A stretch of DNA of 64,000 bases from Oscillospiraceae bacterium. GTDB lineage: Bacteria > Bacillota > Clostridia > Oscillospirales > CAG-382. The stretch spans positions 25,665 through 89,664 of the forward strand of contig SVTM01000007.1 of NCBI GenBank assembly GCA_015063785.1, written 5' to 3'. The translations under genes were made by a program, and so were the position numbers. The notes under the pieces were generated by a model, which ran no database searches, had not been told where the DNA came from, and worked only from the letters and a program-made list of their open reading frames with translations. Every line of letters begins with the position of its first letter. Position 1 is the first letter of the stretch. Of this stretch, positions 1,941-63,015 are shown piece after piece.

Positions 1941-2125
1941 TGAAATAATTAAGAGAGAACCCCCGGCGAGGGTTCTCCCTCTTTTCAACCGCGAAACGGT
2001 TGAAAATTCACCCTCTCCTGCGCTTTTTGAAGGCAAAGGATATTTCGCTCTCTGCGGAGAGCGATTTAAGGCTCCGCCTTAAAAATCCGAAAACTTTTTT
2101 GTAAAAAAGTTTTATCAAAAAACTT
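1941..2125. repeat. Mosaic hairpin repeat, locus A (module II type)
   Basis: A chain of hairpins: GAGAACCC-ccggcga-GGGTTCTC, CAACCG-cgaaa-CGGTTG, TCGCTCTC-tgcg-GAGAGCGA, AAGGC-tcc-GCCTT, AAAACTTTTTT-gt-AAAAAAGTTTT. It is colinear with 54395-54585 and with the reverse of 37691-37905. Confidence 0.75.
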
Positions 2126-2151
2126 AAGTTAATGGGTTGTGCAATTGCTAT

Positions 2152-5525: not shown

Positions 5526-5703
5526 GTCCGTTACCTCCCATGAAAATATCGACAATATTATTCTACCACTTTTTATGGTCGTTTGCAACTGTATTTTTGA
5601 TTTTTTTGAGGATTTTAAACCTACCTCCGAAAAGAGTGGCATTCTCCGGGGCACGGAACGTGACGGGGAGAGTCGGAAATTCATCAATGACAAAAAACAG
5701 AAA

Positions 5704-5755
5704 CATTGTAGGGCAGGGGCCCAATCCTGCCGAATGGTGGGGGATTTTATCAATG
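5704..5755 (+). repeat. Mosaic repeat module IV copy (52 bp, first of a perfect direct pair)
   Basis: cattgtagggcaggggcccaatcctgccgaatggtgggggattttatcaatg is identical to 6040-6091. It contains the hairpin GGCAGG-ggcccaat-CCTGCC and the terminal ATCAATG motif. Confidence 0.9.
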
Positions 5756-6039
5756 TGAAAAACACAATGCGAGAGGGGATATCGCACCCCTCTCACACTC
5801 ACCCTCTCGTCATTTCTTTTTCAAAAAGAAATGACAGTAGAAAATAATTATCGAAATCGGTTTGTCGATATCAGCCCCGTTTCCGATATCTGGGTACGGC
5901 AAAGGTTGAGGTTTTTACTGCAAGGGCATATCGGCATCAAAAGGCGGAGTCATCACGGTTGATTGGTGTGCCATTTTGCCGATATCAGAAAATATACGTC
6001 GGTCATATCGGCGGATATGTTTGGCATCGGTTTCCATCC

Positions 6040-6091
6040 CATTGTAGGGCAGGGGCCCAATCCTGCCGAATGGTGGGGGATTTTATCAATG
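6040..6091 (+). repeat. Mosaic repeat module IV copy (52 bp, second of a perfect direct pair)
   Basis: Identical to 5704-5755 by direct reading. Confidence 0.9.
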
Positions 6092-6287
6092 GCAAAAACG
6101 GGCAAAAAACCGCGCAAAAATACAGGGGGTTGCAATTTTAGATAATATATGTTATAATAACTACATCTGCGTTCAGAAAAGTTCGTTAAAAAACTGTCGC
6201 AAAAGGCGAAAAAAACGCAGAAAACCACTAAAAAAGACCTATATTTTCTCTAAAAAAACACAGTTTCGGAAAGGAGATTCGGAAAAA

Positions 6288-10692: not shown

Positions 10693-10861
10693 ATTAAAAA
10701 AACACTTCCTTCCGCCAGGTTGTGAACCTGCCATATTTTCCTATTTTTAATAATACCAATCTTTTCGTATTTTGTCAATAGCAACAATGGCAAATACCTT
10801 ATTCGCTGCCGACGAAAATCAATACCGCGCACCGTCGGGGACGGCGAGCGATACGGCTATA

Positions 10862-10975
10862 TTTGCACCCCAACCATGCCGCCCTCTTGGGGGAGATGGC
10901 ACGGCGTTGCCGTGACGGAAGGAGTTGGAATTTCATGGGTGGCAAAAACAACGGGCCGACGAAAAAAAACGTCGA
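10862..10975. repeat. Mosaic repeat, module I type copy plus module III fragment
   Basis: atttgcaccccaac...cacggcgttgccgtg...ggagttggaatttcatgggtggcaaaaac parallels 54303-54390 (tttgcacccaac...ggaccgtcgaagacggtgg...ggattttggaatttcatcaatg), with different hairpin stems. Confidence 0.5.
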
Positions 10976-16802: not shown

Positions 16803-18629
16803 ATGGCTTTTCCGCAGAGCTTTATTGAAGAACTGAAAATGCGAAACAGCCTTGAAGCTGTTATCGGCAAATACGTCGATCTCAAGCGCGCAGGCTCGAA
16901 CCTTGTGGGCTGCTGTCCTTTTCACAGCGAGCGCACCCCCTCCTTTACCGTTTTTCCCGAGAAGAATTTTTATTGTTTCGGTTGCGGTGCCGGCGGCGAC
17001 GTCATCACCTTCACCATGCGCATTGAAAATCTCGACTATCGCAGCGCCGTCATCCAGCTTGCCGATGCCGCGGGCATTCCCGTTCCGCAGGACGACGATT
17101 TTGCCGCCAAAAAGCAAAAAGAGATCCTCTCTCGCGAGCGCAATTTTGAAATGAATAAGCTTGCCGCACGGCATTTTCACGAAAACCTTATGTCGCCGCA
17201 GGGACGCGAGGCTTTGGAATATCTCACCTCCCGAGGACTTGCACCGTCAACCATCCGACGCTTTGGTCTTGGTTTTGCCAAGGATTCGTTCGACGATCTT
17301 TACAAATTCCTTTTGTCAAAGAGCTACACCGTTGACGAAATGAAAGAAGCGTTTTTGTGCGGCATTTCGTCCCGTGGCACTCCCTTTGATATGTTCCGCA
17401 ACCGCGTTATCTTCCCGATAATCGACACGTCGGGCAGAGTCATCGCCTTTGGCGGCAGAGTCATGGACGATTCCAAACCCAAATATCTAAACTCGTCCGA
17501 CACCCCCGTTTTCAAAAAGCGCAGCAACCTTTTTGCCCTGAATTTTGCCAAAAACGCCTGTGTCGGCACCGTCGGCAACTCCAGCGACAGAGTGAACTCG
17601 GGCGAGATGATACTTTGCGAAGGCTACATGGACGTTATTGCCCTGCATCAGGCAGGCTTTTCGGGCGCGGTGGCAACCCTTGGCACCGCCGTCACCCCCG
17701 AGCAGGCGCGCGTGATCTCGCGCTATGCCAAAACCCTTTTTGTATCCTACGATTCGGACGATGCCGGCCGCCGCGCAGACGAAAAGGCGATTAAATACAT
17801 GACCGAAGTCGGCGTTGACGTCAAGATACTGAAAGTGACCGGCGGCGCAAAAGACCCCGACGAATATATCAAAAAATACGGCCCCGAAAGCTTCCGCCGT
17901 CTTATGACGGGAGCATCCGGCCAGATAGACTATCGTCTTTCCGAAATAATCGGAAAATACAACATGGATATCCCCGAAGAAAAGCTTTCGATGATAGAAG
18001 AAGCCTGTACCCTTGTGGCAGGGGTGTATCCCGAAATGAAGCGCGAGGTATATATTTTGCGTCTGTCCGAGCTTACGGGCATCGGCAAGGATACCATTGC
18101 CGCCGATATCAAGCGCCGCACACGCAGAATGGCGACGGCACAGAAAAAAGAGATTGCAAAATCGGGCGAGGAGGCTCTGCGCCACTATGGCGACAGGATA
18201 AACCCCGACGCCATGAAGAGCATAAAAGGGGCGTCGGCAGAAGAGCAGATTCTCGGCATACTTCTGCTTTATCCCGAATATTTTTCCCGTCTTTCTTCCG
18301 ATATCCTGTGCGAAAACGATTTTGTCACAGAGTTCAACAAGAGCGTTTTTTGCGAGCTTAAGGGTCTTTATGATGCGGCAGGCGCAGGAGAAGTTGACCT
18401 TTCGGCGCTCAACGAGATTTTTTCGCCCGAGCAGATGGGCAGAATCCACGCCATGTACCGCAAAAGACGAGCTCTCACCGTAAACGACGTGCAAACCCTT
18501 ATCGAGCTTTGCGCGGTACTTAAAAACGAAAAACAAAAAATGTCGGCAACCCCTGCCGACAAGATGTCTGTGGATGATCTTCAGGCGTATCTTGCAGCCA
18601 AGCGTTCGTCCCAAAACGGCAATAAATAA
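16803..18629 (+). CDS. dnaG: DNA primase
   Basis: 608 aa; zinc finger [30 protein letters not shown]; TOPRIM region ([24 protein letters not shown]). Confidence 0.95.
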
Positions 18630-18669
18630 ACACAGCAACACACGGAAAGGTAAAGGTTACATCATCACA

Positions 18670-19794
18670 ATGGCAAAGGCAAAGAACACCGAAAACCAGT
18701 CGGGCGAAAAGAAAAACGAGATACTTCGCCTGATAGAAAAAGGCAAGGCAAAGGGACATCTGACCACCGAAGAGGTGCTGGAGGTCATCGACGAAACAGA
18801 TCTTGACGTTGAACAGATAGAAAAATTATACGAAACCTTCGAAGAGCAGGGCATTGAGGTCATCGGCTACGAGGAGGATATGAACCTGGACGAGATAAGC
18901 TCGGAAACCTTAAGCGATTATGCCGACGACGAAACCGACGACGGCGCCCTCTCGCAGGAAGGTATGCTTATCGACGACCCCGTTCGAATGTACCTTAAAG
19001 AGATCGGAAAGGTCGAGCTGCTTGACACCGAAAAAGAGCTTGCCCTTGCCGAAAAAATGGCAAACGGCGACGAACAGGCAAAGAATATATTGGTGGAAAG
19101 CAACCTGCGCCTTGTTGTCAGCATTGCAAAAAGATATGTGGGCAGAGGAATGTTTTTTCTCGACCTTATTCAGGAGGGAAACCTCGGCCTTATGAAGGCG
19201 GTGGAAAAGTTTGACTATACCAAGGGCTACAAATTCTCTACCTACGCCACCTGGTGGATCAGACAAGCCATCACCCGTGCCATCGCCGACCAGGCGCGCA
19301 CCATCCGAATCCCCGTACATATGGTGGAAACCATAAACAAGGTACTGCGCGTTTCGCGCCAGCTTCTGCAGGAGCTGGGACGCGAGGCGACCACCGAGGA
19401 GATTGCAAAGGTTATGAACATGGCCCCCGAAAAGGTGCGGGACATAATGAAGCTGGCGCAAGAGCCCGTGAGCCTCGAAACCCCCATCGGCGAGGAGGAG
19501 GACAGCCACCTTGGCGATTTTATTCCCGACGACGATGCTCCGGCACCTGCCGATGCGGCATCCTACGCGCTGCTTCGCGAGCAACTGAACGAAGTGCTCC
19601 ACACCCTCACCCCAAGAGAAGAAGAGGTGCTGAAGCTTCGCTTTGGTCTTGAGGACGGCAGAACGCGCACCCTTGAAGAGGTGGGACTGGAATTCAACAT
19701 CACCCGAGAGCGCATCCGTCAGATCGAAGCCAAGGCGCTTCGAAAGCTTCGCCATCCCAGCCGTTCCAAACGGCTTAAAGACTATCTTGACTGA
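18670..19794 (+). CDS. rpoD: Primary RNA polymerase sigma factor (RpoD/SigA)
   Basis: Start at the ATG at 18670 ([10 protein letters not shown]). Canonical group 1 motifs: [94 protein letters not shown]. Downstream of dnaG. Confidence 0.95.
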
Positions 19795-20536: not shown

Positions 20537-21694
20537 ATGGCAAAATCTGCTTCAAAGAAAAAAAGCGCATCTCCCGACAATTCCATAGTAACAAACCTTG
20601 CAGAGCTTCTTACCGAGCGTGCAAAAAACACCGGCTCTCTTTCGAGCGCCGACATTCTCGATTGCATCGAGGATTCCCACATCTCGATCGAACAGATCGA
20701 AATGCTCTATGACATTCTCGACAGCCGCGGCATCGAGATAACCGATTTCAGCGAGGAGGACGCCTTTCTTGACGATATCCTGAAGGGTGACGAAAACCCC
20801 GACAGCCACGAGAACGACGAGTTTGAAGAAGCTCTTGAGGAAGAGCTTGCCCAGGACAGCTCTGTTGTAAACGACTCGGTGCGCGTCTACCTTAAGGACA
20901 TCGGAAAGATCGAGCTTTTAAGCGCCGAACGCGAGCTGGAACTGGCCGAAAAAATGGCAAACGGCGACGAGATCGCCAAGGGCGAGATCATTGAAAGTAA
21001 CCTGCGCCTTGTCGTAAGCATTGCAAAAAAATACACCGGACGCGGCATGCCTTTTCTTGATCTTATCCAGGAGGGCAACATCGGCCTTATGAAGGCGGTG
21101 GAAAAGTTTGACTATACCAAGGGCTACAAGTTCTCGACCTACGCCACCTGGTGGATCAGACAAGCCATCACCCGTTCTATCTCGGTGCACGGCAGAACCA
21201 TCCCCCTTCCGGTACATATCGTTGAAAAAATAAACAAGCTTCGCCAGATCTCCCGTGCTGCAATGCAGCGTCTTGGCCGCGAGCCCAACGACGCCGAGAT
21301 TGCACAGGAAATGGGATGCTCGGTGGAAAAGGTGCGCGAGATCATAAAGTACGCCCAGGACCCCATCAGCCTTGAGGAGCGCGTGGGCAAGGAAGAGGAC
21401 AGCGTTATCGGCGATTTTATTCCCGATGCCAACGCCCCCGACCCCGAACAGATCGTTTCGCGCACTATCCTGCGCGAGAAAATAATGGAAGCTCTCGACA
21501 GCCTGACTCCCAGAGAGGCAAGCGTAATCAAGATGCGCTTTGGACTGATTGACGGCAGAGTCCGCACCCTTGAAGAGGTGGGCGAAGAATTTAACATCAC
21601 CCGTGAACGTATCCGTCAGATCGAAGCAAAGGCTCTGCGCAAGCTGCGCCATCCCAGCCGTATCAAGATGTTCAAGGAATTTGGCGGAGAATGA
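20537..21694 (+). CDS. Second RpoD-like sigma-70 factor (paralog of the gene at 18670)
   Basis: 385 aa with full regions 1.1-4.2. Regions 2.3-2.4 and 4.2 are nearly identical to the first copy, but the invariant [15 protein letters not shown] is changed to [15 protein letters not shown] and region 1.1 is divergent. Confidence 0.85.
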
Positions 21695-26684: not shown

Positions 26685-26711
26685 CAGGAGCCGAAAGGCT
26701 CCTGTTTTTTT
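26685..26711 (+). terminator. Rho-independent terminator of the feo operon
   Basis: CAGGAGCC-gaaa-GGCTCCTG followed by a T7 run. Confidence 0.75.
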
Positions 26712-26813
26712 GCCGTTGATCAAATTTTACACCGAACGGCAGGACGTGGCGCCTGCCCCGCGGCAAAAGAAAGGCACGGCAAAGATGCCGTGCCATACGT
26801 TTTTCTTTTGTTC

Positions 26814-34202: not shown

Positions 34203-34223
34203 GGGATCCTCTGTAATAAAAAA

Positions 34224-34260
34224 GCCGACCACTCTTTTTAAAAAGGGTGGTCGGTTTTTG
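34224..34260 (+). terminator. Rho-independent terminator of ddl
   Basis: GCCGACCAC...GTGGTCGGT hairpin followed by TTTTTG. Confidence 0.6.
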
Positions 34261-34261
34261 T

Positions 34262-34465
34262 GTGGGTCTCCATATAAATCCCGCACCCAATGATAAAGTT
34301 TCGGTCCACCCTTTTCAAAGGGTGGCGGATTCCAAATCAATGATAAAAATCCCAACCGTAGGGGCGAACTGCGTTCGCCCGTTTTTGCCATCGGTTAAAT
34401 TCCATACAAAACGGCAGGAGCAAGCCCCTGCCCTACGATAAGGGCGGGAGGCTTTTATTGAAATA
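34262..34465. repeat. Mosaic hairpin repeat, locus C (module II fragment, III, IV, I fragment)
   Basis: Contains CCACCCTTttcAAAGGGTGG, gtaGGGGCGAACtgcGTTCGCCC and GGCAGGagcaagccCCTGCC units separated by CATTGAT/ATCAATG-like junctions. Confidence 0.8.
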
Positions 34466-37518: not shown

Positions 37519-38100
37519 GTTTTTGCCATTTGTTAAATTCCAAAATCCCTCCACCGTCTTCGACGGTCCCCCTCCCTTTAGGCAAGGGAGGCGTTTGTTG
37601 GGGTGCAAATTTTTAACCATTGATAAAAAACCCAATCGTAGGGTGAGGTGTGTTCGCCCGTTTTTGTCATCGGTTAAATCCCACAACAAATAATAAAGTT
37701 TCGGTCCACCCTTTTCAAAGGGTGGCGGATTCCAAAGGCGGCGCCTTTGGTCGCTCTCCGCAGAGAGCGAAACACTCTTTTTCCTTCCCAATGCGCAGGG
37801 AAGTTGCAAGCAACTTCTGAAGTTTGTTGCACAAACTTCGACGGGTGAATTGCACGAAGTGCAAGAGGGAAACCCTCGCCGGGGGTTTCCCTTTTTCAAG
37901 CATTGATTAAATCCCACACCAAACGGCAGGAGCAAGCCCCTGCCCTACGATAGGGCGGGAGGCGTTTGTTGGGGTGCAAATTTTTAACCATTGATAAAAA
38001 ACCCAATCGTAGGGGCGAACTGTGTTCGCCCGTTTTTGCCAATGATTAAATTACACACCAAACGGCAGGAGAGAACCTATGCCCTATGATTAAGGTAGGA
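37519..38100. repeat. Mosaic hairpin repeat, locus D (largest array, about 580 bp, at least 7 modules)
   Basis: By direct reading the module order is I, III, II (with two extra hairpins), IV, I fragment, III, IV, all reverse-oriented relative to locus E. There is an internal direct repeat of about 55 bp (37590-37645 vs 37962-38015). Confidence 0.85.
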
Positions 38101-41160: not shown

Positions 41161-41190
41161 AAACGGAAGCTTCGGCTTCCGTTTTTTTTG
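41161..41190 (+). terminator. Rho-independent terminator of gap
   Basis: AAACGGAAGC-ttcg-GCTTCCGTTT followed by a T-run. Confidence 0.8.
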
Positions 41191-41282
41191 GTTGTGCCGC
41201 GATTTCGCCGGTGGCAAAAACAAACACCGTGGGCAGAATATTGCCCCGGCTCCACAGTCGATACGCAGGAGCAAAAATAGGA

Positions 41283-41308
41283 GGGGCAAGCCCCTCCCAT
41301 GACAGAGA
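41283..41308 (-). terminator. Terminator of the minus-strand phage-like operon
   Basis: On the minus strand, GGAGGGGC-tt-GCCCCTCC followed by TATTTTTG, 14 nt after the lipoprotein stop. Confidence 0.6.
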
Positions 41309-41321
41309 CGGGATATCTCCG

Positions 41322-41564
41322 TCAAAAATTGATATTTGCCGAATCGGGCGAATCCTTGGTGATATGATTGTCGGGCACACTGCGCCTCACACCTTTTGCG
41401 CCGTCATCTGTCATGCCGTCGGTCATATCTTTTACGATGCTTTTGTTGTCGTTGTCATCCATGGGAGTTTTGCCGTCCTTGTCGGCATCGCCGCAGGAGG
41501 CAAGAAAAAGAGACGCCGCTGTTGACAGGGCAAGAAAGCCTGCCGCATATTTTGAAAATTTCAT
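41322..41564 (-). CDS. Small acidic lipoprotein (80 aa), last gene of the phage-like operon
   Basis: Start at the ATG at 41564. Lipobox LFLASC. Only 62 nt downstream of the preceding gene, with no intervening terminator. Confidence 0.5.
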   Translation of the reverse strand: MKFSKYAAGFLALSTAASLFLASCGDADKDGKTPMDDNDNKSIVKDMTDGMTDDGAKGVRRSVPDNHITKDSPDSANINF

Positions 41565-52489: not shown

Positions 52490-52689
52490 GCGATTTTTCG
52501 AATATTCGTTCGTTTTGTAACTTTGCACAAAGCCCAAGCCTGCACGCAGGCAAATAAAAAATCAAATTTGTATATTTTACCACTTGACTTTTGCGAACAT
52601 TTGTGCTATATCTTCCTTTCATATTTTCGCCGCCGAAAAAATAAAATATATAGCCTGCGGCAATTTTTTATTTGAAAGGAACAGACAAA

Positions 52690-54204
52690 ATGAAAAACGA
52701 AAGCTCGCGCACGATCTCGTCGATCAAAAACCTGCGCGCAAGCACGGCAGGGATATTCATAAACGTGATATTCAGCTTTTTCTCGCGAAAGATCTTTGTT
52801 CTTGTGCTGGGCAAAGAATACGTGGGGGTATCGAGCCTTATCGGCAACATCACGGCGCTTATATCTCTTGTGGATTTTGGTGCCGCCACCGCCGTGACCT
52901 ATCGGCTTTATCGCGCCCTTGCCACGGGTGATGACAAATCTGTTTGCGGATATCTGCATTTTTATCGCCGCATCTGCGCCCTTTCGTCTGTCCTCACCTG
53001 TGTTGCAGGGGCGGCTTTGAGCGTGATACTGCCAAAGCTTGTGCGCGGATTTGACGATGCCGTCACCCTTTATGTGGTTTTTGCCGCAAGCATTCTGACC
53101 AGTGCCGCCGAATATTTTTTTATGCCCGAAAGGGTGCTTCTGTTTGCCGATCAAAAAAGCTATGTTGCCCAGCTTTTTTCGTATGCGTTCGGGGCGGTCA
53201 CGGTGGTTGCAGACGCCGTGGTGCTTGTGGTTTTCAAAAGCTTTTCGGCACATCTTCTTGTCCATTCGGCGCTGAGCATACTGCAGGATATCTTTGTGGT
53301 GCGCCACGTCAGGCGGCAATATGCAAAGCTGGGCATCTCGTCAAAAAAGAGGTATGACAAGGCTTTTTTTAAGGATCTTGTACGCGAAATGGTGTCTCTT
53401 GCACCGTCGAATATTGCCGGCACACTTTCGCGCACCGTCGACAATTTTATTGTGGTGTCGCTTTTCGGTGTGTCGCAAAACGGGGTATATTCAAACTACA
53501 ATATGCTGCTTTCGTATGCGGCAATTTTTTCGGTGACGGTGGTGGGGGCGATCTCGGCAAGCGTGGGAAACCTTAACGCCAGCGCATCACGGGCGCGGTC
53601 GATGCGCATTTTCGGCATGACAAGTCTTGCTTCGTTTTTTCTTGTAAATATCAGCACAACTTTGCTTTTTGTCATGTCGGGAGATATAATGACGGCGTGG
53701 CTGGGCAGCACGATGGCGCTTCCTTTTTCGTGCTCGTGCGCTCTTGCCGCAAATTTCTTTATATCCGGCGTGCGCCGTGTTCCCGTGGTTTTCCGCGACA
53801 GTCTGGGGCTTTACAGGCACGAAAAAATAAAATCCTTCGTCGACCTTTTTGCTTCTGTGGCTCTGTCGGTATTTTTTGGCAAAAAGTTTGGAATTGCAGG
53901 CATATATCTCGGTCAGGCGGTGGCGGCGTTTGTGGTATGCCTGTGGTACGAGCCGTACGTGCTTTTCAAATACGGCTTTGGCACGGGGGTGTGGCGGTAT
54001 TATATGCGCTTGCTTTCATATGCCGCCGTGTCGGCGGCGTCGTGCCTGTGCTCGCTTTCGCTGTGTCATGCGGTGGGAAGCTTTTCGGTAAAATTTTTGG
54101 TGTGTATTGCCGTTTCGGCGGTATTCTTTTTTGCCTGCTTTGCAGGGTGCCGCGATCTTTCGGGCATTTTCGAAAAGTTCTCGGCAATGCGCGCAAAATC
54201 GTAG
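52690..54204 (+). CDS. MOP-superfamily polysaccharide/oligosaccharide flippase (Wzx-like)
   Basis: 504 aa from the ATG at 52690, roughly 12-14 hydrophobic helices, N-terminus typical of Polysacc_synt proteins. Its TAG stop lies inside the first repeat module (cgTAGggcag). Confidence 0.6.
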   Translation: MKNESSRTISSIKNLRASTAGIFINVIFSFFSRKIFVLVLGKEYVGVSSLIGNITALISLVDFGAATAVTYRLYRALATGDDKSVCGYLHFYRRICALSSVLTCVAGAALSVILPKLVRGFDDAVTLYVVFAASILTSAAEYFFMPERVLLFADQKSYVAQLFSYAFGAVTVVADAVVLVVFKSFSAHLLVHSALSILQDIFVVRHVRRQYAKLGISSKKRYDKAFFKDLVREMVSLAPSNIAGTLSRTVDNFIVVSLFGVSQNGVYSNYNMLLSYAAIFSVTVVGAISASVGNLNASASRARSMRIFGMTSLASFFLVNISTTLLFVMSGDIMTAWLGSTMALPFSCSCALAANFFISGVRRVPVVFRDSLGLYRHEKIKSFVDLFASVALSVFFGKKFGIAGIYLGQAVAAFVVCLWYEPYVLFKYGFGTGVWRYYMRLLSYAAVSAASCLCSLSLCHAVGSFSVKFLVCIAVSAVFFFACFAGCRDLSGIFEKFSAMRAKS

Positions 54205-54585
54205 GGCAGGGGGCCCGTCCTGCCGTTTGGTATGGAATTTTGCCTATGGCAGAACGGGCGAACGCAGTTCGCCCCTACGATTGGAATTTTTATCATTGAT
54301 TTGAAATTTGCACCCAACACAAGCCTTCTCCTATTAGGAGAAGGGGGACCGTCGAAGACGGTGGAGGGATTTTGGAATTTCATCAATGCTTGAAAAAGGG
54401 AAACCCCCGGCGAGGGTTTCCCTCTTGCACTTCGTGCAATTCACCCATCCTGCGCATTGCGAACGCAAAAAGGGGGTGTTTCGCTCTCTGCGGAGAGCGA
54501 CCAAAGGCGCCGCCTTTGGAATCCGCCACCCTTTGAAAAGGGTGGACCGAAACTTTACCCTTTGGGCGGTGTAAATGCGCCATTT
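54200..54585. repeat. Mosaic hairpin repeat, locus E (modules IV, III, I, II in forward orientation)
   Basis: Read directly: cgtaGGGCAGGgggcccgtCCTGCC; GGGCGAACgcaGTTCGCCC; tttgcacccaac...GGACCGTCgaaGACGGTGG...ggaatttcatcaatg; GGGAAACCCccggcgaGGGTTTCCC...CCACCCTTtgaaAAGGGTGG. Confidence 0.85.
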
Positions 54586-54738: not shown

Positions 54739-56172
54739 ATGGCAAGCTCACAATACATGGCAGAATTTGAAAAAATGCCGCCTGCGCAGGTTCGCGAAAA
54801 GGTGGATATCATGGCGCAGGAGATACGCAACAAGGTTATATCAGCCAAAAACTACATCCCCCACGGCGAGCGTGTGATATATCTTTCAAACGCAGGCTGC
54901 GACGAAAACGACGGACTTTCGGTTGAAAAACCCATCCGCACCATCGAAAAGCTGAATTCCATAACGCAGGACGGCGACACCGTGCTTTTCAAGCGCGGCG
55001 ACATCTTCCGCGGCAGTGTAAAAGTGGTGCACGAAAACATGACTTTTTCGGCGTACGGCGAGGGCGTAAAGCCTATTATCTGCGGCTCGCTCAAAAACTA
55101 TGCCGACCCGGATCTTTGGCAGCCCACCGAGTACGAAAACGTATATCGCCTTACCGAAACGCTCGACAACGTGGGACTTATCATCTTCAACCCCGGCTAC
55201 ACCTACGGCTCGACCGACGAGATATATGCCGACAGAGCCATGCGCGGCAAAAACGGCTTTATGGAGCTTTGCGATCTTCGCGATGACCTTGTTTTTTACA
55301 ACGACTACGAAACAGGCGAGCTTTATCTCTGCTCGCACGGGGGCAACCCTGCAGAGCGTTTTTATGACATCGAGATCGGCGCAAAAGGATGTGTTTCTGC
55401 CGTGTTTGACGGCGGAGCTCCCGGTGCCACCTTCGACAATCTCTGGGTGCTTTTTGCAGGTTGCCACGGCATAAGCTCGGGCACGGCAATAAACAGAACC
55501 GTAAAAAACTGCATCTTCGGTTGGATCGGCGGTGCGGCATTTGGCGGCGAAAAGCGCGGCGACGGCAGCTGGAATACCACACGCTACGGCAACGCCGTTC
55601 AGATATACGGCGGATGCATCGGTTTTCACGTCGAAAACAACTGGATGTATCAGATTTTTGACACAGCCATCACCCATCAGTACGGCGGATATTCCGAGGG
55701 CGACTGTATTCAGGAGGACGTTATCTACCGCGGAAATCTCACCGAGGGCTGCTTCTGGCACATCGAATTTTACAACGGCGGCCGCGAGGGCACAAAACGC
55801 TATGTCAAGGATGTATATATGACCGGCAACATCTGCCGCTACGGCGGATGGGGATGTACCGGAAGATGCGGCGGAGCCCCCATGTTCTGCGGCGCGGGAA
55901 TGTGCGAGGATGTGGAAAACTTCGTTGCAGAAAGAAATATCTTCTGCCACTCGCCGGGCGTTCTTGTCCAGTTCATTGACGAGGGCAACCGCAAGATTGT
56001 TATGCGCAACAACGTATATATCGACCCGATGGGCGCGCGTCTTGGCAGAATGTACGGCAACATCTATCCTTTTGACGATACGGCAAAGGACACACTTAAA
56101 AACCTTGTGCACGAGCAAGAGCCCACCGTCGTATTTATGCAAAAACCCAACATGAATTATCTGAAATACTGA
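54739..56172 (+). CDS. Right-handed parallel beta-helix protein, paralog 1 of 3 (477 aa)
   Basis: No signal peptide. Shared motifs with paralogs 2 and 3: GDTVLFKRGD.FRG, NNWMYQI.DTAITHQY, NCIF.W.GG, and a Cys-rich C-terminal part. Confidence 0.6.
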   Translation: MASSQYMAEFEKMPPAQVREKVDIMAQEIRNKVISAKNYIPHGERVIYLSNAGCDENDGLSVEKPIRTIEKLNSITQDGDTVLFKRGDIFRGSVKVVHENMTFSAYGEGVKPIICGSLKNYADPDLWQPTEYENVYRLTETLDNVGLIIFNPGYTYGSTDEIYADRAMRGKNGFMELCDLRDDLVFYNDYETGELYLCSHGGNPAERFYDIEIGAKGCVSAVFDGGAPGATFDNLWVLFAGCHGISSGTAINRTVKNCIFGWIGGAAFGGEKRGDGSWNTTRYGNAVQIYGGCIGFHVENNWMYQIFDTAITHQYGGYSEGDCIQEDVIYRGNLTEGCFWHIEFYNGGREGTKRYVKDVYMTGNICRYGGWGCTGRCGGAPMFCGAGMCEDVENFVAERNIFCHSPGVLVQFIDEGNRKIVMRNNVYIDPMGARLGRMYGNIYPFDDTAKDTLKNLVHEQEPTVVFMQKPNMNYLKY

Positions 56173-56197
56173 AAACATACATCAGGAGGAAACAAAA

Positions 56198-57622
56198 ATG
56201 GCAACAAAGAAGTTTATGGCGGAGCTTGAAAAAATGACTCCTGCCGAAGTAAAAAGAGCACTCGACCTCAAGGCGCAGGAAATGAAGGATTCGGTTATCT
56301 TCACTCCCAACTACCAGCCCAAGAGCGAAAGAGTTATTTACGTTTCAAATTCGGGTTGCGACTGCAACGACGGTCTTTCGGTTGAAAAGCCGATTGCTAC
56401 CCTTAAAAAGGTTTATGAGATCACACAGCCCGGCGACACAGTGCTTTTTAAGCGCGGCGACCATTTCAGAGGAACCATCACAGTCGATAAGGACGGCGTG
56501 ACCTACGCTTCCTACGGCGAAGGTATCAAGCCCATCATCGACTCGTCAAAGAAAAACTATGCCGGCGCAGATATGTGGGAGCCCACCGACGTTGAAAACG
56601 TTTATGTTCTCAAGGAAGAGATCGACAACCCCGGTCTTTTGCACTTTGACCCAAGCTATACCTATGGCGTATACAACGAGCTTTACGGCCACATGAAGCT
56701 GCGCGGTGCAGGCGGATTTATGAATTATGATCAGCTTTCGTCCGACCTCGAATTTTTTGGCGACAGAGAAACCAACAAGCTCTATCTTTACTCGGACAAG
56801 GGCAACCCCGGCGAAAGATTTCTTGACATCGAGATCGGCGCAGGCGGAAGCACCTTTGGCGGTTCTGCCCACAACGTAACCTTTGACGGACTTTGGATCA
56901 TGCACACAGGCTGCCACGGCATCGGCTCGGGCACCACAGTCAACCGCACCGTCAGAAACTGCATTTTCTCGTGGCTGGGCGGCTCGATGCTGGGCGGCGC
57001 AAAGCGCGGCGACGGAAGCTACAACACCACACGCTTTGGCAACGCTGTTGAGATCTACGGCGGATGCGAGGGCTACACCGTTGAAAATAACTGGATGTAT
57101 CAGATCTACGACACCGCCATCACCCATCAGTACGGACACTATTCCGAGGGCGACTGTATCCAGCACGACGTGCTTTATCGCAACAACCTTATGGAATATT
57201 GCTTCTGGTCGATCGAATTTTATGACGGCGAGCGCGAAGGCACCACCCGTGAGGTCAAGAACGTCTACATGACAGGCAACTTTGCCTACATGGGCGGCTA
57301 TGGCTGGGGATGCAAGGGCAGAGAAGCCTGGGCACCCCTCTGGTGCGGATCGCACGTTTGCAACAACCTTTCAAACTTTGTCACCGAAAACAACATTTTC
57401 GCCATCTGCACAGGATATCTTGTCCGTCTCGAGGACAACCCCGGCGCAAGAAATATCGTCTGCCGCAACAACGTTTACGTTCAGGAAAAGGGCAAAAAGC
57501 TCGGCCATCTTTACGGCAAGGAATATATCTATGACGACAACGCCAAGGAAAGCTTCAAGCAGCTTCTGCACGACGAGGAATCCACCGTTGTTTATATGCC
57601 TGCGCCCGAAATCAGATTTTGA
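56198..57622 (+). CDS. Right-handed parallel beta-helix protein, paralog 2 of 3 (474 aa)
   Basis: Colinear with paralogs 1 and 3 over the full length. AGGAGGAAA RBS. Confidence 0.6.
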   Translation: MATKKFMAELEKMTPAEVKRALDLKAQEMKDSVIFTPNYQPKSERVIYVSNSGCDCNDGLSVEKPIATLKKVYEITQPGDTVLFKRGDHFRGTITVDKDGVTYASYGEGIKPIIDSSKKNYAGADMWEPTDVENVYVLKEEIDNPGLLHFDPSYTYGVYNELYGHMKLRGAGGFMNYDQLSSDLEFFGDRETNKLYLYSDKGNPGERFLDIEIGAGGSTFGGSAHNVTFDGLWIMHTGCHGIGSGTTVNRTVRNCIFSWLGGSMLGGAKRGDGSYNTTRFGNAVEIYGGCEGYTVENNWMYQIYDTAITHQYGHYSEGDCIQHDVLYRNNLMEYCFWSIEFYDGEREGTTREVKNVYMTGNFAYMGGYGWGCKGREAWAPLWCGSHVCNNLSNFVTENNIFAICTGYLVRLEDNPGARNIVCRNNVYVQEKGKKLGHLYGKEYIYDDNAKESFKQLLHDEESTVVYMPAPEIRF

Positions 57623-57685
57623 TAAGGTAATACGTGTTTAAGGGGCACCTATGTGTCCCCTTTCTCAAAAAAGGAGGAAACGAAA

Positions 57686-59095
57686 ATGGCAATAAAGCAT
57701 TATCTTAAAGAGCTTGAAAGCATGACGCCTGCTAAGGCAAAGGAATTTTTGGATATCAAAGCTCAGGAAATGAAAAATTCGGTTATCTCGGCTCCCGATT
57801 ATCAGCCGAAAAACGAAAGAGTTATATATGTTTCAAACAAGGGCTGCGACTGCAACGACGGCCTTACCCCGGAAACCGCCATCGCCACCCTTGAAAAGGT
57901 AAACGAGATTACACAGCCGGGCGATACCGTGCTTTTCGAGCGCGGCAGCCATTTCAGAGGCAGCATCAAGGTGGACAAGGACGGCGTGACATATGCCGCA
58001 TACGGCAAGGGTGTAAAGCCTATTATCAACACTTCGCCCAAAAACTATTCCGATCCTGCCCTTTGGGAAAAGACAGAGGTGGAAAACGTATGGCACCTGA
58101 CCGAAAAGATCAACAATGTCGGTCTTATCCATTTTGACCCCAGCTATACCTATGGTCAGTACAACGAGCTTTACGGCACCATGCAGGTAAAGGGAAGAAA
58201 CGGATTTGAAGGATATGCCGATCTTAAAAAAGATCTTGATTATTATTCAGATTTCCACACCGACGACCTTTATCTTTACAGCGAAAAGAACCCGGGTGAG
58301 CGTTTTCTTGACATCGAGCTTTGCCCGAGAGTAAACACCTTCTCCGGCTCGGCAAACGACGTTACGGTGGACGGTTTGTGGATCATGCACACAGGTGCCC
58401 ACGGCATAGGCTCGGGCACAACAAAGAACCGCACCGTCAGAAACTGCATTTTCTCGTGGTTGGGCGGATCGATCCTTACGCTCAGTTTCAGAGGAGGCGG
58501 CCCTGTGCGCTACGGCAATGCTGTCGAAATTTACGGCGGCTGCGACGGATATACCGTTGAAAACAACTGGATGTATCAGATCTATGATACCGCCGTCACC
58601 CATCAGTTCTCCGGCGGCGATTGCGAATGTCATCAGCACAACGTAAAATATCTTAACAACCTCATGGAGTTCTGCTTCTGGTTTATCGAATATTACAACG
58701 CCGATTGCCAAGGACATCCCCAGAGTGTTAAGAATATCTATATGACAGGCAACTTCTGCCGCTTTGGCGGATATGGCTGGGGATGCAAGGGCAGAGAATG
58801 GGGCACACCCATGTACTGCGGTTCGACGGTTTGCTGCGAGGTCGAAAACCACGTTGCCGAAAACAACATTTTCTATCAGTGTCTGGGATATCTCGTTGTT
58901 CTTGCCAACTGCGAAGGCCACAAGCCCGAGATCATGCGCAACAACGTTTATGTCAACCCCAAGGGCGAAAAGTTTGCCAACGTTTTCGGTCAGATACTTA
59001 ACTTTGACGGCACCGAAAAGGAAATGCTTAAAAAGTATGTGAACGAAGAAGAACCCACCGTTATCTATATGCCAAGACCCGGTTATACCTTCTGA
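57686..59095 (+). CDS. Right-handed parallel beta-helix protein, paralog 3 of 3 (469 aa)
   Basis: Start at the ATG at 57686 (AAGGAGGAAA RBS). Colinear with paralogs 1 and 2. Confidence 0.6.
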   Translation: MAIKHYLKELESMTPAKAKEFLDIKAQEMKNSVISAPDYQPKNERVIYVSNKGCDCNDGLTPETAIATLEKVNEITQPGDTVLFERGSHFRGSIKVDKDGVTYAAYGKGVKPIINTSPKNYSDPALWEKTEVENVWHLTEKINNVGLIHFDPSYTYGQYNELYGTMQVKGRNGFEGYADLKKDLDYYSDFHTDDLYLYSEKNPGERFLDIELCPRVNTFSGSANDVTVDGLWIMHTGAHGIGSGTTKNRTVRNCIFSWLGGSILTLSFRGGGPVRYGNAVEIYGGCDGYTVENNWMYQIYDTAVTHQFSGGDCECHQHNVKYLNNLMEFCFWFIEYYNADCQGHPQSVKNIYMTGNFCRFGGYGWGCKGREWGTPMYCGSTVCCEVENHVAENNIFYQCLGYLVVLANCEGHKPEIMRNNVYVNPKGEKFANVFGQILNFDGTEKEMLKKYVNEEEPTVIYMPRPGYTF

Positions 59096-59137: not shown

Positions 59138-59379
59138 GCGGTTGGGGGGCAAAAACATAACTTTGTAGGGCAAGGTATATTCGATTTTTATTCATTGATT
59201 TATATACCTCACCGCGCACAACCGCGATTCTCGCAAAAATAGACGAAAAATTTAAACAATCTATTGTAACGAGCAAAAAAATATGCTATACTAAAAATAT
59301 ATGTGAAAAATTTTCCGTCCCTTGCGCGAACAGCGCAAAATGCACACAAAAATACAATTCATACCGAAAGGATAGGATT

Positions 59380-62710: not shown

Positions 62711-62844
62711 GTGTCTTTTATAACCTACCGATTTGGTGGGAAATAATCGCTGAGGACGTCGGTCGATTTAAAAGTTTATTTATCAATTGTAAAAACAACA
62801 CCTCATCCACCGCCGGCGCATTTTTCACCGTAGGGCAGGACGGA

Positions 62845-63015
62845 TCATTCGTGGGTTTCCGTTTTTTCCTTTGCCATCTCTTTTTCGTATTCCTCAAAGC
62901 TTACTTCGCGATAATTTTCGGCTTTGTCCCAATCGCCAAGAACGATGGTTGTGGCAAAAACCGAGCCGTTAGTCAGCATTTTGCCGTCGCTTGCAGTTAA
63001 AATTTTCCTTTCCAT
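62845..63015 (-). CDS. Small hypothetical protein (56 aa), last gene of a prophage tail-fibre module; below the ORF-track cut-off
   Basis: My translation: MERKILTASDGKMLTNGSVFATTIVLGDWDKAENYREVSFEEYEKEMAKEKTETHE. Strong AAAGGAGG RBS. Confidence 0.5.
   Translation of the reverse strand: MERKILTASDGKMLTNGSVFATTIVLGDWDKAENYREVSFEEYEKEMAKEKTETHE

Follow-up and report, generated by a model that had tools for sequence, protein, structure and literature searches.

What are the hairpin-built repeats that recur between the genes of a 64-kb stretch of Clostridia DNA, and what has spread them? The stretch, referred to here as the window, comprises 64,000 nucleotides of an uncultured Clostridia chromosome (Oscillospiraceae bacterium, contig SVTM01000007.1; ~49% GC), is also present in Joint Genome Institute (JGI) metagenome 3300032167, and carries the gene content of an ordinary chromosome (recG, ddl, GAPDH, feoB, an htrA-like gene, sigma factors and glycoside hydrolases). 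Four modules (I to IV) recur in it at ~10 intergenic sites, far more than by chance, and an earlier note on this DNA had likened them to the repetitive extragenic palindromes (REPs) and bacterial interspersed mosaic elements (BIMEs) of Escherichia coli. That likeness holds, and more strongly than was proposed: modules III and IV each consist of GTAG and a GC-rich hairpin, and they are paired as head-to-head dimers. The arrays are probably a clostridial REP/BIME system made of GTAG-REP dimers and stacked units, mobilised by a REP-associated tyrosine transposase (RAYT) and accumulating past the 3' ends of genes. This reading is carried by the anatomy of the REPs and their dimers, by the spread of the REP over multiple species, and by REPs embedded in the RAYT genes of related genomes.

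REPs and their head-to-head dimers

On the appropriate strand, module IV reads GTAG-GGCAGGGG-CTTG-CTCCTGCC and module III reads GTAG-GGGCGAAC-TGT-GTTCGCCC; in both, GTAG is followed by an 8-bp stem that opens with three G-C pairs and closes on a loop of 3-4 nt. The hairpin of REP IV has one G.T pair in its stem, a 4-nt loop and a folding energy of -6.3 kcal/mol as DNA, and that of REP III has a perfect stem (-9.2 kcal/mol, z -5.2). A strict scan for GTAG with 8-bp-stem hairpins gave 8 in the window versus 1.6 +/- 1.3 in Markov shuffles. Exact GTAG stands directly 5' of the stem in 8 of the 11 copies of IV and III, the other three having ATAG, a lost foot or a damaged arm, and all REP copies lie outside long open reading frames (ORFs) or called genes. 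Three head-to-head IV-linker-III dimers with GTAG on the outside are present (54197-54281, 38005-38096 and 34357-34437), all built on a conserved 31-nt linker, GTTTGGTGTGGGATTTAATCAATGGCAAAAAC. The predicted dimer fold allows the 9-nt feet ATCGTAGGG and CCCTACGAT to pair over 9 bp as an outer 'double foot'. Modules III and IV are thus palindromes of the 20-40 bp class that fold as stable stem-loops with an unpaired GT[AG]G foot, at extragenic sites mainly downstream of genes, and the unlike REPs alternate in orientation, with conserved linker motifs, in clusters of variable composition: they are canonical GTAG-footed REPs in the classic REP-dimer/BIME layout. The statement that they are unrelated to the E. 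coli REPs is correct for the stem sequence and must be given up for the foot and the architecture, which are common to both.

All six main loci named in the earlier note were recovered with a repeat search and with nhmmer profiles built from module copies, where seed copies match by construction. The largest array, array F (37519-38100), matches 54197-54565 over 96 nt at 94%, 77 nt at 96% and 63 nt at 89%, and is also linked by repeats to 34275-34449, 5704-6106 and 2035-2098. The profiles recovered in the window six copies of module IV (E 3e-19 to 9e-17) plus one further at 26710-26758 (E 2e-7), four of module III (E 1e-22 to 5e-20), three of module I plus one head fragment, and three of module II plus a 3' fragment at 34277-34336. 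The linker-head motif TGGCAAAAAC occurs 12 times versus 0.57 expected from shuffles and CGTAGGG 11 times versus 2.96, and the single strands of arrays H (at 54197) and F fold far better than their shuffles (z = -6.8 and -7.6). Units are bracketed by a common tail, TTGGnnGGRATTTWAYCAATG, and a common head, GCAAAAAC; the full 23-nt tail-plus-head linker occurs six times in the window versus 0.01 expected. Some details of the earlier description change. The motif ATCAATG, said to mark nearly every module boundary, does have 10 of its 16 copies within arrays but is not enriched across the window (16 versus 11.7 expected). Of the varied orders and orientations that had been described, orientation falls away, since each array has one fixed relative orientation and whole arrays alone are flipped.

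The arrays had been placed between genes and mostly at gene 3' ends, and indeed 9 of 10 touch a gene 3' end, array B (5683-6106) lying between divergent genes. Half of them (5 of 10) stand directly past a canonical intrinsic terminator. REP IV is followed by GTTTGG and REP III, on the other strand, by GTTTTTGCC, and a consensus scan flags both as terminator-like. Irregular spacing rules out a CRISPR array, and inconsistent orientation and position rule out a riboswitch or leader.

The REP in other genomes and a RAYT family that carries it

The pattern GTAGGGCAGG-N8-CCTGCCG matched at least 120 genome stretches in a scan of 185,579 species genomes. Among the matches listed, the exact 25-mer of the window's REP IV occurs 43 times at 39 loci, all in metagenome-assembled genomes (MAGs) of Clostridia (Acutalibacteraceae, Oscillospiraceae, Faecousia and others) and with unrelated flanks, and loop variants of the pattern extend to Verrucomicrobia, Anaerolineae, Planctomycetes and others. 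Of 137 IV-pattern matches, 51 lie within 130 nt of an inverted hairpin that ends in CCCTAC, a partner that often has another stem; heterologous head-to-head dimers are therefore the norm. The hairpin pattern of III was found in 24 stretches in IMG/VR.

Two further genomes hold repeats of this kind. A Faecousia MAG (L114 2741-5188, 2981-3060) has a single REP dimer (GGCAGG + GGCGGG) upstream of a recG homologue, at about the same place as array F, and may offer a candidate orthologous-site comparison. In a cultured member of the Oscillospiraceae, Vescimonas fastidiosa, pMM35_01 (L133 2571-3184; NZ_AP023416.1 ~165.2-166.1 kb) carries an intergenic array beside gyrA-like and toprim genes, in which several GTAG REPs occur together with a module-I-like unit and hairpins of the GTCATTGCGA type; the replicon, of 861 kb, has no RAYT by tblastn.

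When the ORFs of the fetched loci were clustered, one small protein family stood out, its genes overlapping or adjoining REP matches in five of the loci (L005, L061, L102, L008 and L107). The family belongs to Pfam Y1_Tnp (E 5e-5 and 2e-9), its best NCBIfam model is 'REP-associated tyrosine transposase' (NF047646, 79.1 and 69.5 bits; the 79 bits compare with 18 for the IS200 model NF033573), its sole relative in the PDB is E. coli TnpA-REP (4ER8, E 1.2e-4), and one member is named RayT by JGI. The HuH motif of these RAYT genes is flanked, in frame, by the REP 25-mer and by its inverse, where GCC GTA GGG CAG GGG CTT GCT CCT GCC is translated as A-VGQGLAPA and the inverse copy as AGASPCPT. The family numbers 6578 clusters (90% identity) at E <= 1e-10, and in the best 120 homologues VGQGLAPA is kept in 107 and AGASPCPT in 114, even in genomes of 36-37% GC. 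One fetched locus (L042) has a RAYT with REPs of the same class on its flanks. One member of the family has the same chromosomal neighbours in seven samples and hence behaves as a single-copy gene rather than as an insertion sequence (IS); the related RAYT of L102 is truncated.

Quentin 2018 characterise TnpAY1 subclass 2.4 (Bertels group 4) by the HuH and Y motifs NH[IFV]H and Y..NP, by long REPs whose stems have three G-C pairs at the bottom, by a 'double foot' and by REPs in frame within tnpA-REP (PMC6006769). Members of the subclass are further expected to have WQ and a Y motif of the form YIxNNP. The proteins of L005 and L061 have MPNHIH, YIETNP or YIDENP, and WQ (L061) or FQ (L005), and thus show the NH[IFV]H and Y motifs together with the in-frame REPs of that subclass, as far as motif comparison goes. 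Judged from their sequences, the clostridial RAYTs most resemble subclass 2.4.

Separately, the Clostridia RAYT genes at L005 3926-4438, L135 3001-3507 and L153 1700-2197 contain two exact GC-rich in-frame REP hairpins each, and in L153 the in-gene types, GGCAGG and GGCGGG, are also the two halves of a head-to-head dimer that lies outside genes on that contig, at positions 451-529. A 'transposase' match in Monoglobus was uninformative, being a fragment within a restriction-modification locus, and a 47-aa chimeric query returned no candidate RAYT with a III-type in-frame REP.

These observations suggest how the system might work. A single-copy RAYT, a TnpA-REP enzyme of the HUH (histidine-hydrophobic-histidine)/tyrosine type nearest to subclass 2.4, would recognise the hairpin folded by single-stranded DNA, together with the GTAG foot, and would cut and rejoin there, allowing REPs to spread and persist; for E. 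coli TnpA-REP, recognition, cutting and rejoining of single-stranded DNA have been shown biochemically in the cited literature. The basic unit is the head-to-head dimer, and in the larger arrays further units, some of them modules I and II, are stacked in one polarity, presumably either by insertion beside a recreated ...CAATG end or by recombination between linkers, and recombination between common linkers could also shuffle the modules. Elements would collect just beyond gene 3' ends and terminators, in neutral space, where each dimer might resemble a pair of convergent terminator or mRNA-stabiliser hairpins.

Several observations weigh against this reading. The window has no RAYT by tblastn and none among all fetched loci is of the source organism, so that we infer mobilisation by a RAYT here; the one from the same metagenome (L153) is on a contig of 36.8% GC, compared with ~49% for the window, and is for that reason assigned to another organism. 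The NCBIfam scores of 79.1 and 69.5 bits are just under the cutoff of 80. The dimers are not strict REPINs (REP doublets forming hairpins), a class that we rule out because the two half-stems differ (GGCAGG..CCTGCC versus GGGCGAAC..GTTCGCCC) and the 9-nt feet alone pair. Modules I and II lack a GTAG foot, and a RAYT therefore need not act on them. No known REP system accounts for the lineage-specific tail/head linker: among the fetched loci it occurs only in the source organism's own contigs, and a scan of metagenome contigs for the tail pattern of IV, in a collection evidently without the source lineage, gave 8 unrelated terminator hairpins only. The count of 11 REPs and 2 fragments covers 64 kb plus ~4 kb of flanks, whereas REPs typically number tens to hundreds per genome, and any genome-wide figure would be extrapolated from that stretch. 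The consensus scan is the sole basis for reading the REPs as terminators, and the polarity of the arrays relative to transcription is unbiased (5 sense, 4 antisense), which argues against a strictly strand-specific RNA role.

The arrays, modules I and II, and competing explanations

Array H, on the + strand, starts with a head-to-head REP dimer (54197..54281; profile, fold and hairpin scan), in which REP IV (GTAGGGCAGG-N8-CCTGCC, 54201-54224) is followed by the 31-nt linker and the inverted REP III (GGGCGAAC-GCA-GTTCGCCC-CTAC, 54256-54278). As had been noticed, the array supplies a stop codon: ORF 52672-54204 ends at 54202-54204 on the TAG of the left REP foot. Module I follows (54307..54389, +; nhmmer E 1.9e-23, fold), with head TTTGCACCCAAC, hairpins CCTTCTCC/GGAGAAGG and ACCGTC/GACGGT, and tail GGGATTTTGGAATTTCATCAATG, and then module II with 5-6 hairpins (54385..54576, +; nhmmer E 3.9e-64, 102.8 bits with covariance model R1, covariation). 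Directly downstream, 54739-59095 holds three tandem paralogous genes (477, 474 and 480 aa) with DNA segments 63-86% identical, the first of them without a Pfam match. Elsewhere in the window, sigma-70-like paralogues at 18574-19794 and 20537-21694 have 72-83% DNA identity, with a 232-aa gene between them.

Array F, on the - strand and of seven modules, has a tandem of two dimers, and module II splits one of them. The unsplit dimer (38005..38096, -; profile, fold and hairpin scan) consists of a degenerate IV' with foot ATAG and a damaged 5' arm (38036-38096, -), the linker, and REP III (GTAGGGGCGAAC on the + strand, 38009-38031). A module-I head (37957-38014, -) is fused 5' to a REP IV with tail (37900..37958, -; exact 25-mer GTAGGGCAGGGGCTTGCTCCTGCCG at 37925-37948), and this head is one copy of the internal direct repeat, which had been put at about 55 bp and is in fact exact over 58 nt. 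The long form of module II, with two extra hairpins (37677..37904, -; nhmmer E 3.1e-71, R1 104.7 bits), lies between REP IV and REP III, inside the dimer linker, with its own tail copy TTGTGGGATTTAACCGATG next. The REP III that follows has one damaged arm (GGGTGAGG..GTTCGCCC) together with head and tail (37604..37664, -; nhmmer E 4.6e-20), and the end of a module I (37525..37609, -; nhmmer E 7.4e-25) is 35 nt upstream of the start codon of recG (37490).

In array E (34277..34446, -), an IV-linker-III head-to-head dimer (34357-34437) is followed by the 3' end of a module II (34277-34336), between convergent genes (ddl-like and AP endonuclease) and just past an intrinsic terminator at 34222-34262. 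Array B (5683..6106, +), the only array in a divergent promoter region, has two direct copies of REP IV with tail, 97% identical (5704-5755 and 6040-6091), around a hairpin-rich segment of 284 bp, with linker copies at 5683-5698 and 6085-6099. Its inner 284 bp (5756-6039) begin in a module-II-like manner (TGAAAAAC, a hairpin, CACTCACCC) and continue with at least six CGATATC/CCGATAT motifs. Array C (10829..10975, +) consists of an ACCGTC-type hairpin, a module I (10862-10942) and the linker head TGGCAAAAAC (10940-10949), and a solitary, diverged module II with no REP attached lies at 1945..2128 (+; nhmmer E 9.5e-44, R1 104.9 bits). Absent from the earlier list is a degenerate REP IV with tail, whose foot is not GTAG, at 26710..26758 (-; nhmmer E 1.9e-7 and repeat search), directly past the terminator of the feoB operon. 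The 'degenerate fragments' that had been listed near 41.2, 59.2 and 62.8 kb are detectable by motifs but match no profile. The first (41190..41330, +), past the GAPDH terminator, has the linker head TGGCAAAAAC (41212), a GTGG-footed hairpin and a GGAGGGGCAAGCCCCTCC hairpin; the second (59140..59200, +) has GGCAAAAAC, then GTAGGGCAAGG without its 3' arm, then a III-type tail, ATTTTTATTCATTGAT; and the third (62826..62846, +) is a 5' fragment of REP IV (CGTAGGGCAGGAC) that abuts the stop codon at 62845-62847 of a 56-aa gene (62845-63015, -), as had been seen.

Modules I and II are not REPs, being chains of hairpins. Module I has a conserved head, TTTGCACCCCAAC, two hairpins that differ in sequence between copies with pairing kept, and the common tail; its ACCGTC hairpin was ruled out as a CGTC-tagged REP, given that CGTC lies within the stem (ACCGTC-GAA-GACGGT) and leaves no unpaired tag. 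Module II strings 5-8 hairpins together, and its single-stranded motifs TTCACCC and GACCGAAAC are conserved. In an alignment of five sequences, 96% of cells are paired and double compensatory changes occur in 14 of 32 pairs, the figure for shuffles being 5.2 and that for slid controls no higher than 5. A promoter-like TTGAAA, 17 nt, TATTAT or TATCAT at 37718-37690 (-) and 34318-34290 (-) is made of the last hairpin loop and end of module II; the copy in array F points to recG, and the site is absent from the copy in array H.

Modules II and I may form an independent family despite the common linker, either a structured non-coding RNA or a BOX-like mobile hairpin chain that occupies the same intergenic landing zones, a reading that we find possible though not likely. 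It would account for the module II that stands alone at 1945-2128 and for homologues that have no REP beside them, in a Clostridia MAG (L108) and on an IMG/VR contig (L122), for the strong pairing and covariation, for a number of internal hairpins that varies as in BOX, and for the module-I-like unit of V. fastidiosa pMM35_01, which has a compensated second hairpin and was the only match in the plasmid collection, the phage collection giving no module match. However, Rfam gave no match at gathering over the whole window and none even at E <= 10 (the best sub-threshold score was 24 bits versus a threshold of 50), the modules' orientation varies with respect to transcription, and no promoter or terminator goes with them consistently. 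Other Clostridia loci, 0.54 Mb in all, gave no additional copy with a covariance model of the 3' half of module II, and the covariation comes from five sequences only. II and I carry the tail and head of REP units: module II sits inside a dimer linker in array F, and on a second IMG/VR contig (L168) a tail-like stretch and then a GTAG REP come after a II-like chain, placements that imply that modules II and I use the REP linker system. Of the module-II-like chains on these two 'viral' contigs (L122 2434-2640, L168 6430-6570), one is situated between a terminase-like gene and its neighbour and the other precedes a GTAGGGGCGAAC REP.

It is rather unlikely that the arrays are host-maintained bidirectional terminators, insulators or stabilisers of 3' untranslated regions, spread and reshuffled solely by homologous recombination, gene conversion or slippage between the common linkers, with the RAYT lost or never present. 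The position of the arrays past terminators and at 3' ends, the terminator-like scores of III and IV, the lack of a RAYT in the window and the truncation of the related one in L102 would all fit such a history, and the exact 58-nt duplication and the 97%-identical local direct copies resemble recombination or duplication. Yet the exact 25-mer stands with unrelated flanks at 39 loci of Clostridia MAGs and also inside RAYT genes, the GTAG foot is conserved although a terminator does not need it, and the genes have terminators of their own upstream of the arrays.

A bolder and, to us, doubtful idea takes the linker itself as the defining feature. The linker, GGRATTTWAYCAATG followed by GCAAAAAC, may define a modular 'hairpin cassette' system in the source lineage, in which bracketed hairpin sets are inserted polarly beside an existing unit and module II is an undescribed structured element that targets REP-dimer linkers. 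Eligible sets may be a GTAG REP facing either way, module I with its two hairpins and module II with its 5-8, and module II may itself be BOX-like mobile DNA or a non-coding RNA. If this is true, REP systems can draw in structured modules unrelated to them and spread these too, which would extend the known REP/BIME picture.

We consider it improbable that the units are miniature derivatives of IS200/IS605, in the manner of palindrome-associated transposable elements (PATEs) or miniature inverted-repeat transposable elements (MITEs), moved by a classical TnpA that inserts 3' of a short target such as CAATG. All units end in ...ATCAATG and stack in one polarity, as if the right end recreated the target, and their hairpins are subterminal; however, the proteins fit RAYT far better (79 bits for NF047646 versus 18 bits for NF033573), the RAYT-like genes appear to be single-copy in a conserved chromosomal context, and the window has no tnpA or tnpB.

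Chance similarity or an assembly artefact has next to no claim left and is already refuted, because, even though metagenome contigs break within the arrays, the enrichment statistics exclude chance and a JGI assembly made independently (sample 3300032167) agrees at 100% identity over 5.4 kb, a span that takes in 544 bp of array F, within which its contig terminates. In the same JGI sample an additional array lies immediately past the right end of the window (contig L123 positions 1-105), and there too the contig terminates within the array. JGI contigs of the source organism (L001 position 1, L123 position 1) stop exactly within arrays, and the arrays thus fragment short-read assemblies.

Relation to known repeat systems

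Work on REPs and RAYTs has so far concerned almost entirely Proteobacteria and Cyanobacteria; here, a dense BIME-like GTAG-REP system is found in gut or rumen Clostridia, with one exact 25-nt REP common to dozens of species and present twice in frame in a very large RAYT family. It could provide a Gram-positive test bed for RAYT-REP co-evolution, and it raises the question of unrelated hairpin modules, such as module II, that hitch-hike on a REP system. On the practical side, such arrays break metagenome assemblies, create spurious ORFs and supply stop codons, and could serve as strain markers.

The closest comparison is with the REP/BIME elements of E. coli (Y, Z1 and Z2 REPs, S and L linkers), where a GTAG foot likewise precedes an imperfect GC-rich palindrome, two REP types alternate in inverted orientation with conserved linkers, and the mosaics are extragenic and mostly at 3' ends; E. 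coli TnpA-REP (4ER8) is also the only solved relative of the clostridial REP-associated family. The clostridial stems, in contrast, have unrelated sequences and, at 8 bp without a bulge, are shorter, the linker likewise is unrelated and has no motif of the integration host factor (IHF) type, and the arrays also hold non-REP hairpin chains. To our knowledge, Firmicutes have no IHF. The RAYT relatives are nearer subclass 2.4 than the E. coli subclass, 2.2, and the host belongs to the Clostridia.

For module II, the nearest likeness is to the BOX elements of Streptococcus pneumoniae, modular intergenic elements of boxA-boxB(n)-boxC structure, ~100-250 nt long, with variable internal hairpins and no protein. 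The two have in common conserved ends, a variable number of hairpins, strong predicted structure and no encoded protein; unlike BOX, with which it has no sequence similarity, module II has the REP-unit linker. We know of no transposase for either. With the PATEs of IS200/IS605 the arrays have in common subterminal hairpins, the HUH chemistry of single-tyrosine (Y1) enzymes on single-stranded DNA and polar insertion at a short target, whereas the clostridial enzyme is RAYT-like and apparently single-copy, no IS copy was seen, and the units are much shorter.

The GTAG superfamily of Di Nocera 2013 (PMC3733652) has the same GTAG tag and stems of 6-9 bp, and in it head-to-head dimers 20-100 bp apart between unidirectional or convergent genes, the layout seen here, are the rule. 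Subclass 2.4 of Quentin 2018 has in common with the clostridial system three G-C pairs at the bottom of the stem, the 'double foot', in-frame REPs, and the NHIH and YIxxNP motifs. Surveys of GTAG REPs cover Proteobacteria, Cyanobacteria, Chloroflexi, the PVC (Planctomycetes, Verrucomicrobia, Chlamydiae) group and Bacteroidetes (PMC3733652, PMC6006769), the text of the 2013 survey, which lists the first four of these, names no Firmicutes (PMC3733652), and Bertels 2017 mentions group 1 RAYTs alone in Clostridia. Compared with the surveyed systems, the clostridial one differs in that an exact 25-mer is common to many species and two in-gene REPs flank the HuH motif. The searchable literature, which excludes most subscription journals, contained neither GTAG REPs nor a relevant RAYT/REPIN link in Firmicutes, and neither the 24-mer of IV nor VGQGLAPA or AGASPCPT; 'undescribed' is provisional for that reason.

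The REPINs of Pseudomonas fluorescens SBW25 (Bertels & Rainey) offer a last parallel, two inverted REPs that form a replicative-looking unit with a single-copy RAYT as putative mobiliser. Their halves are near-identical and fold into one long hairpin, whereas the clostridial halves are GGCAGG and GGGCGAAC and only the 9-nt feet pair. With the lineage-specific linker and the structured module II as the genuinely unexplained parts, the arrays represent the known REP/BIME repeats in a clostridial form, mixed with two other hairpin modules, and not a new kind of element.

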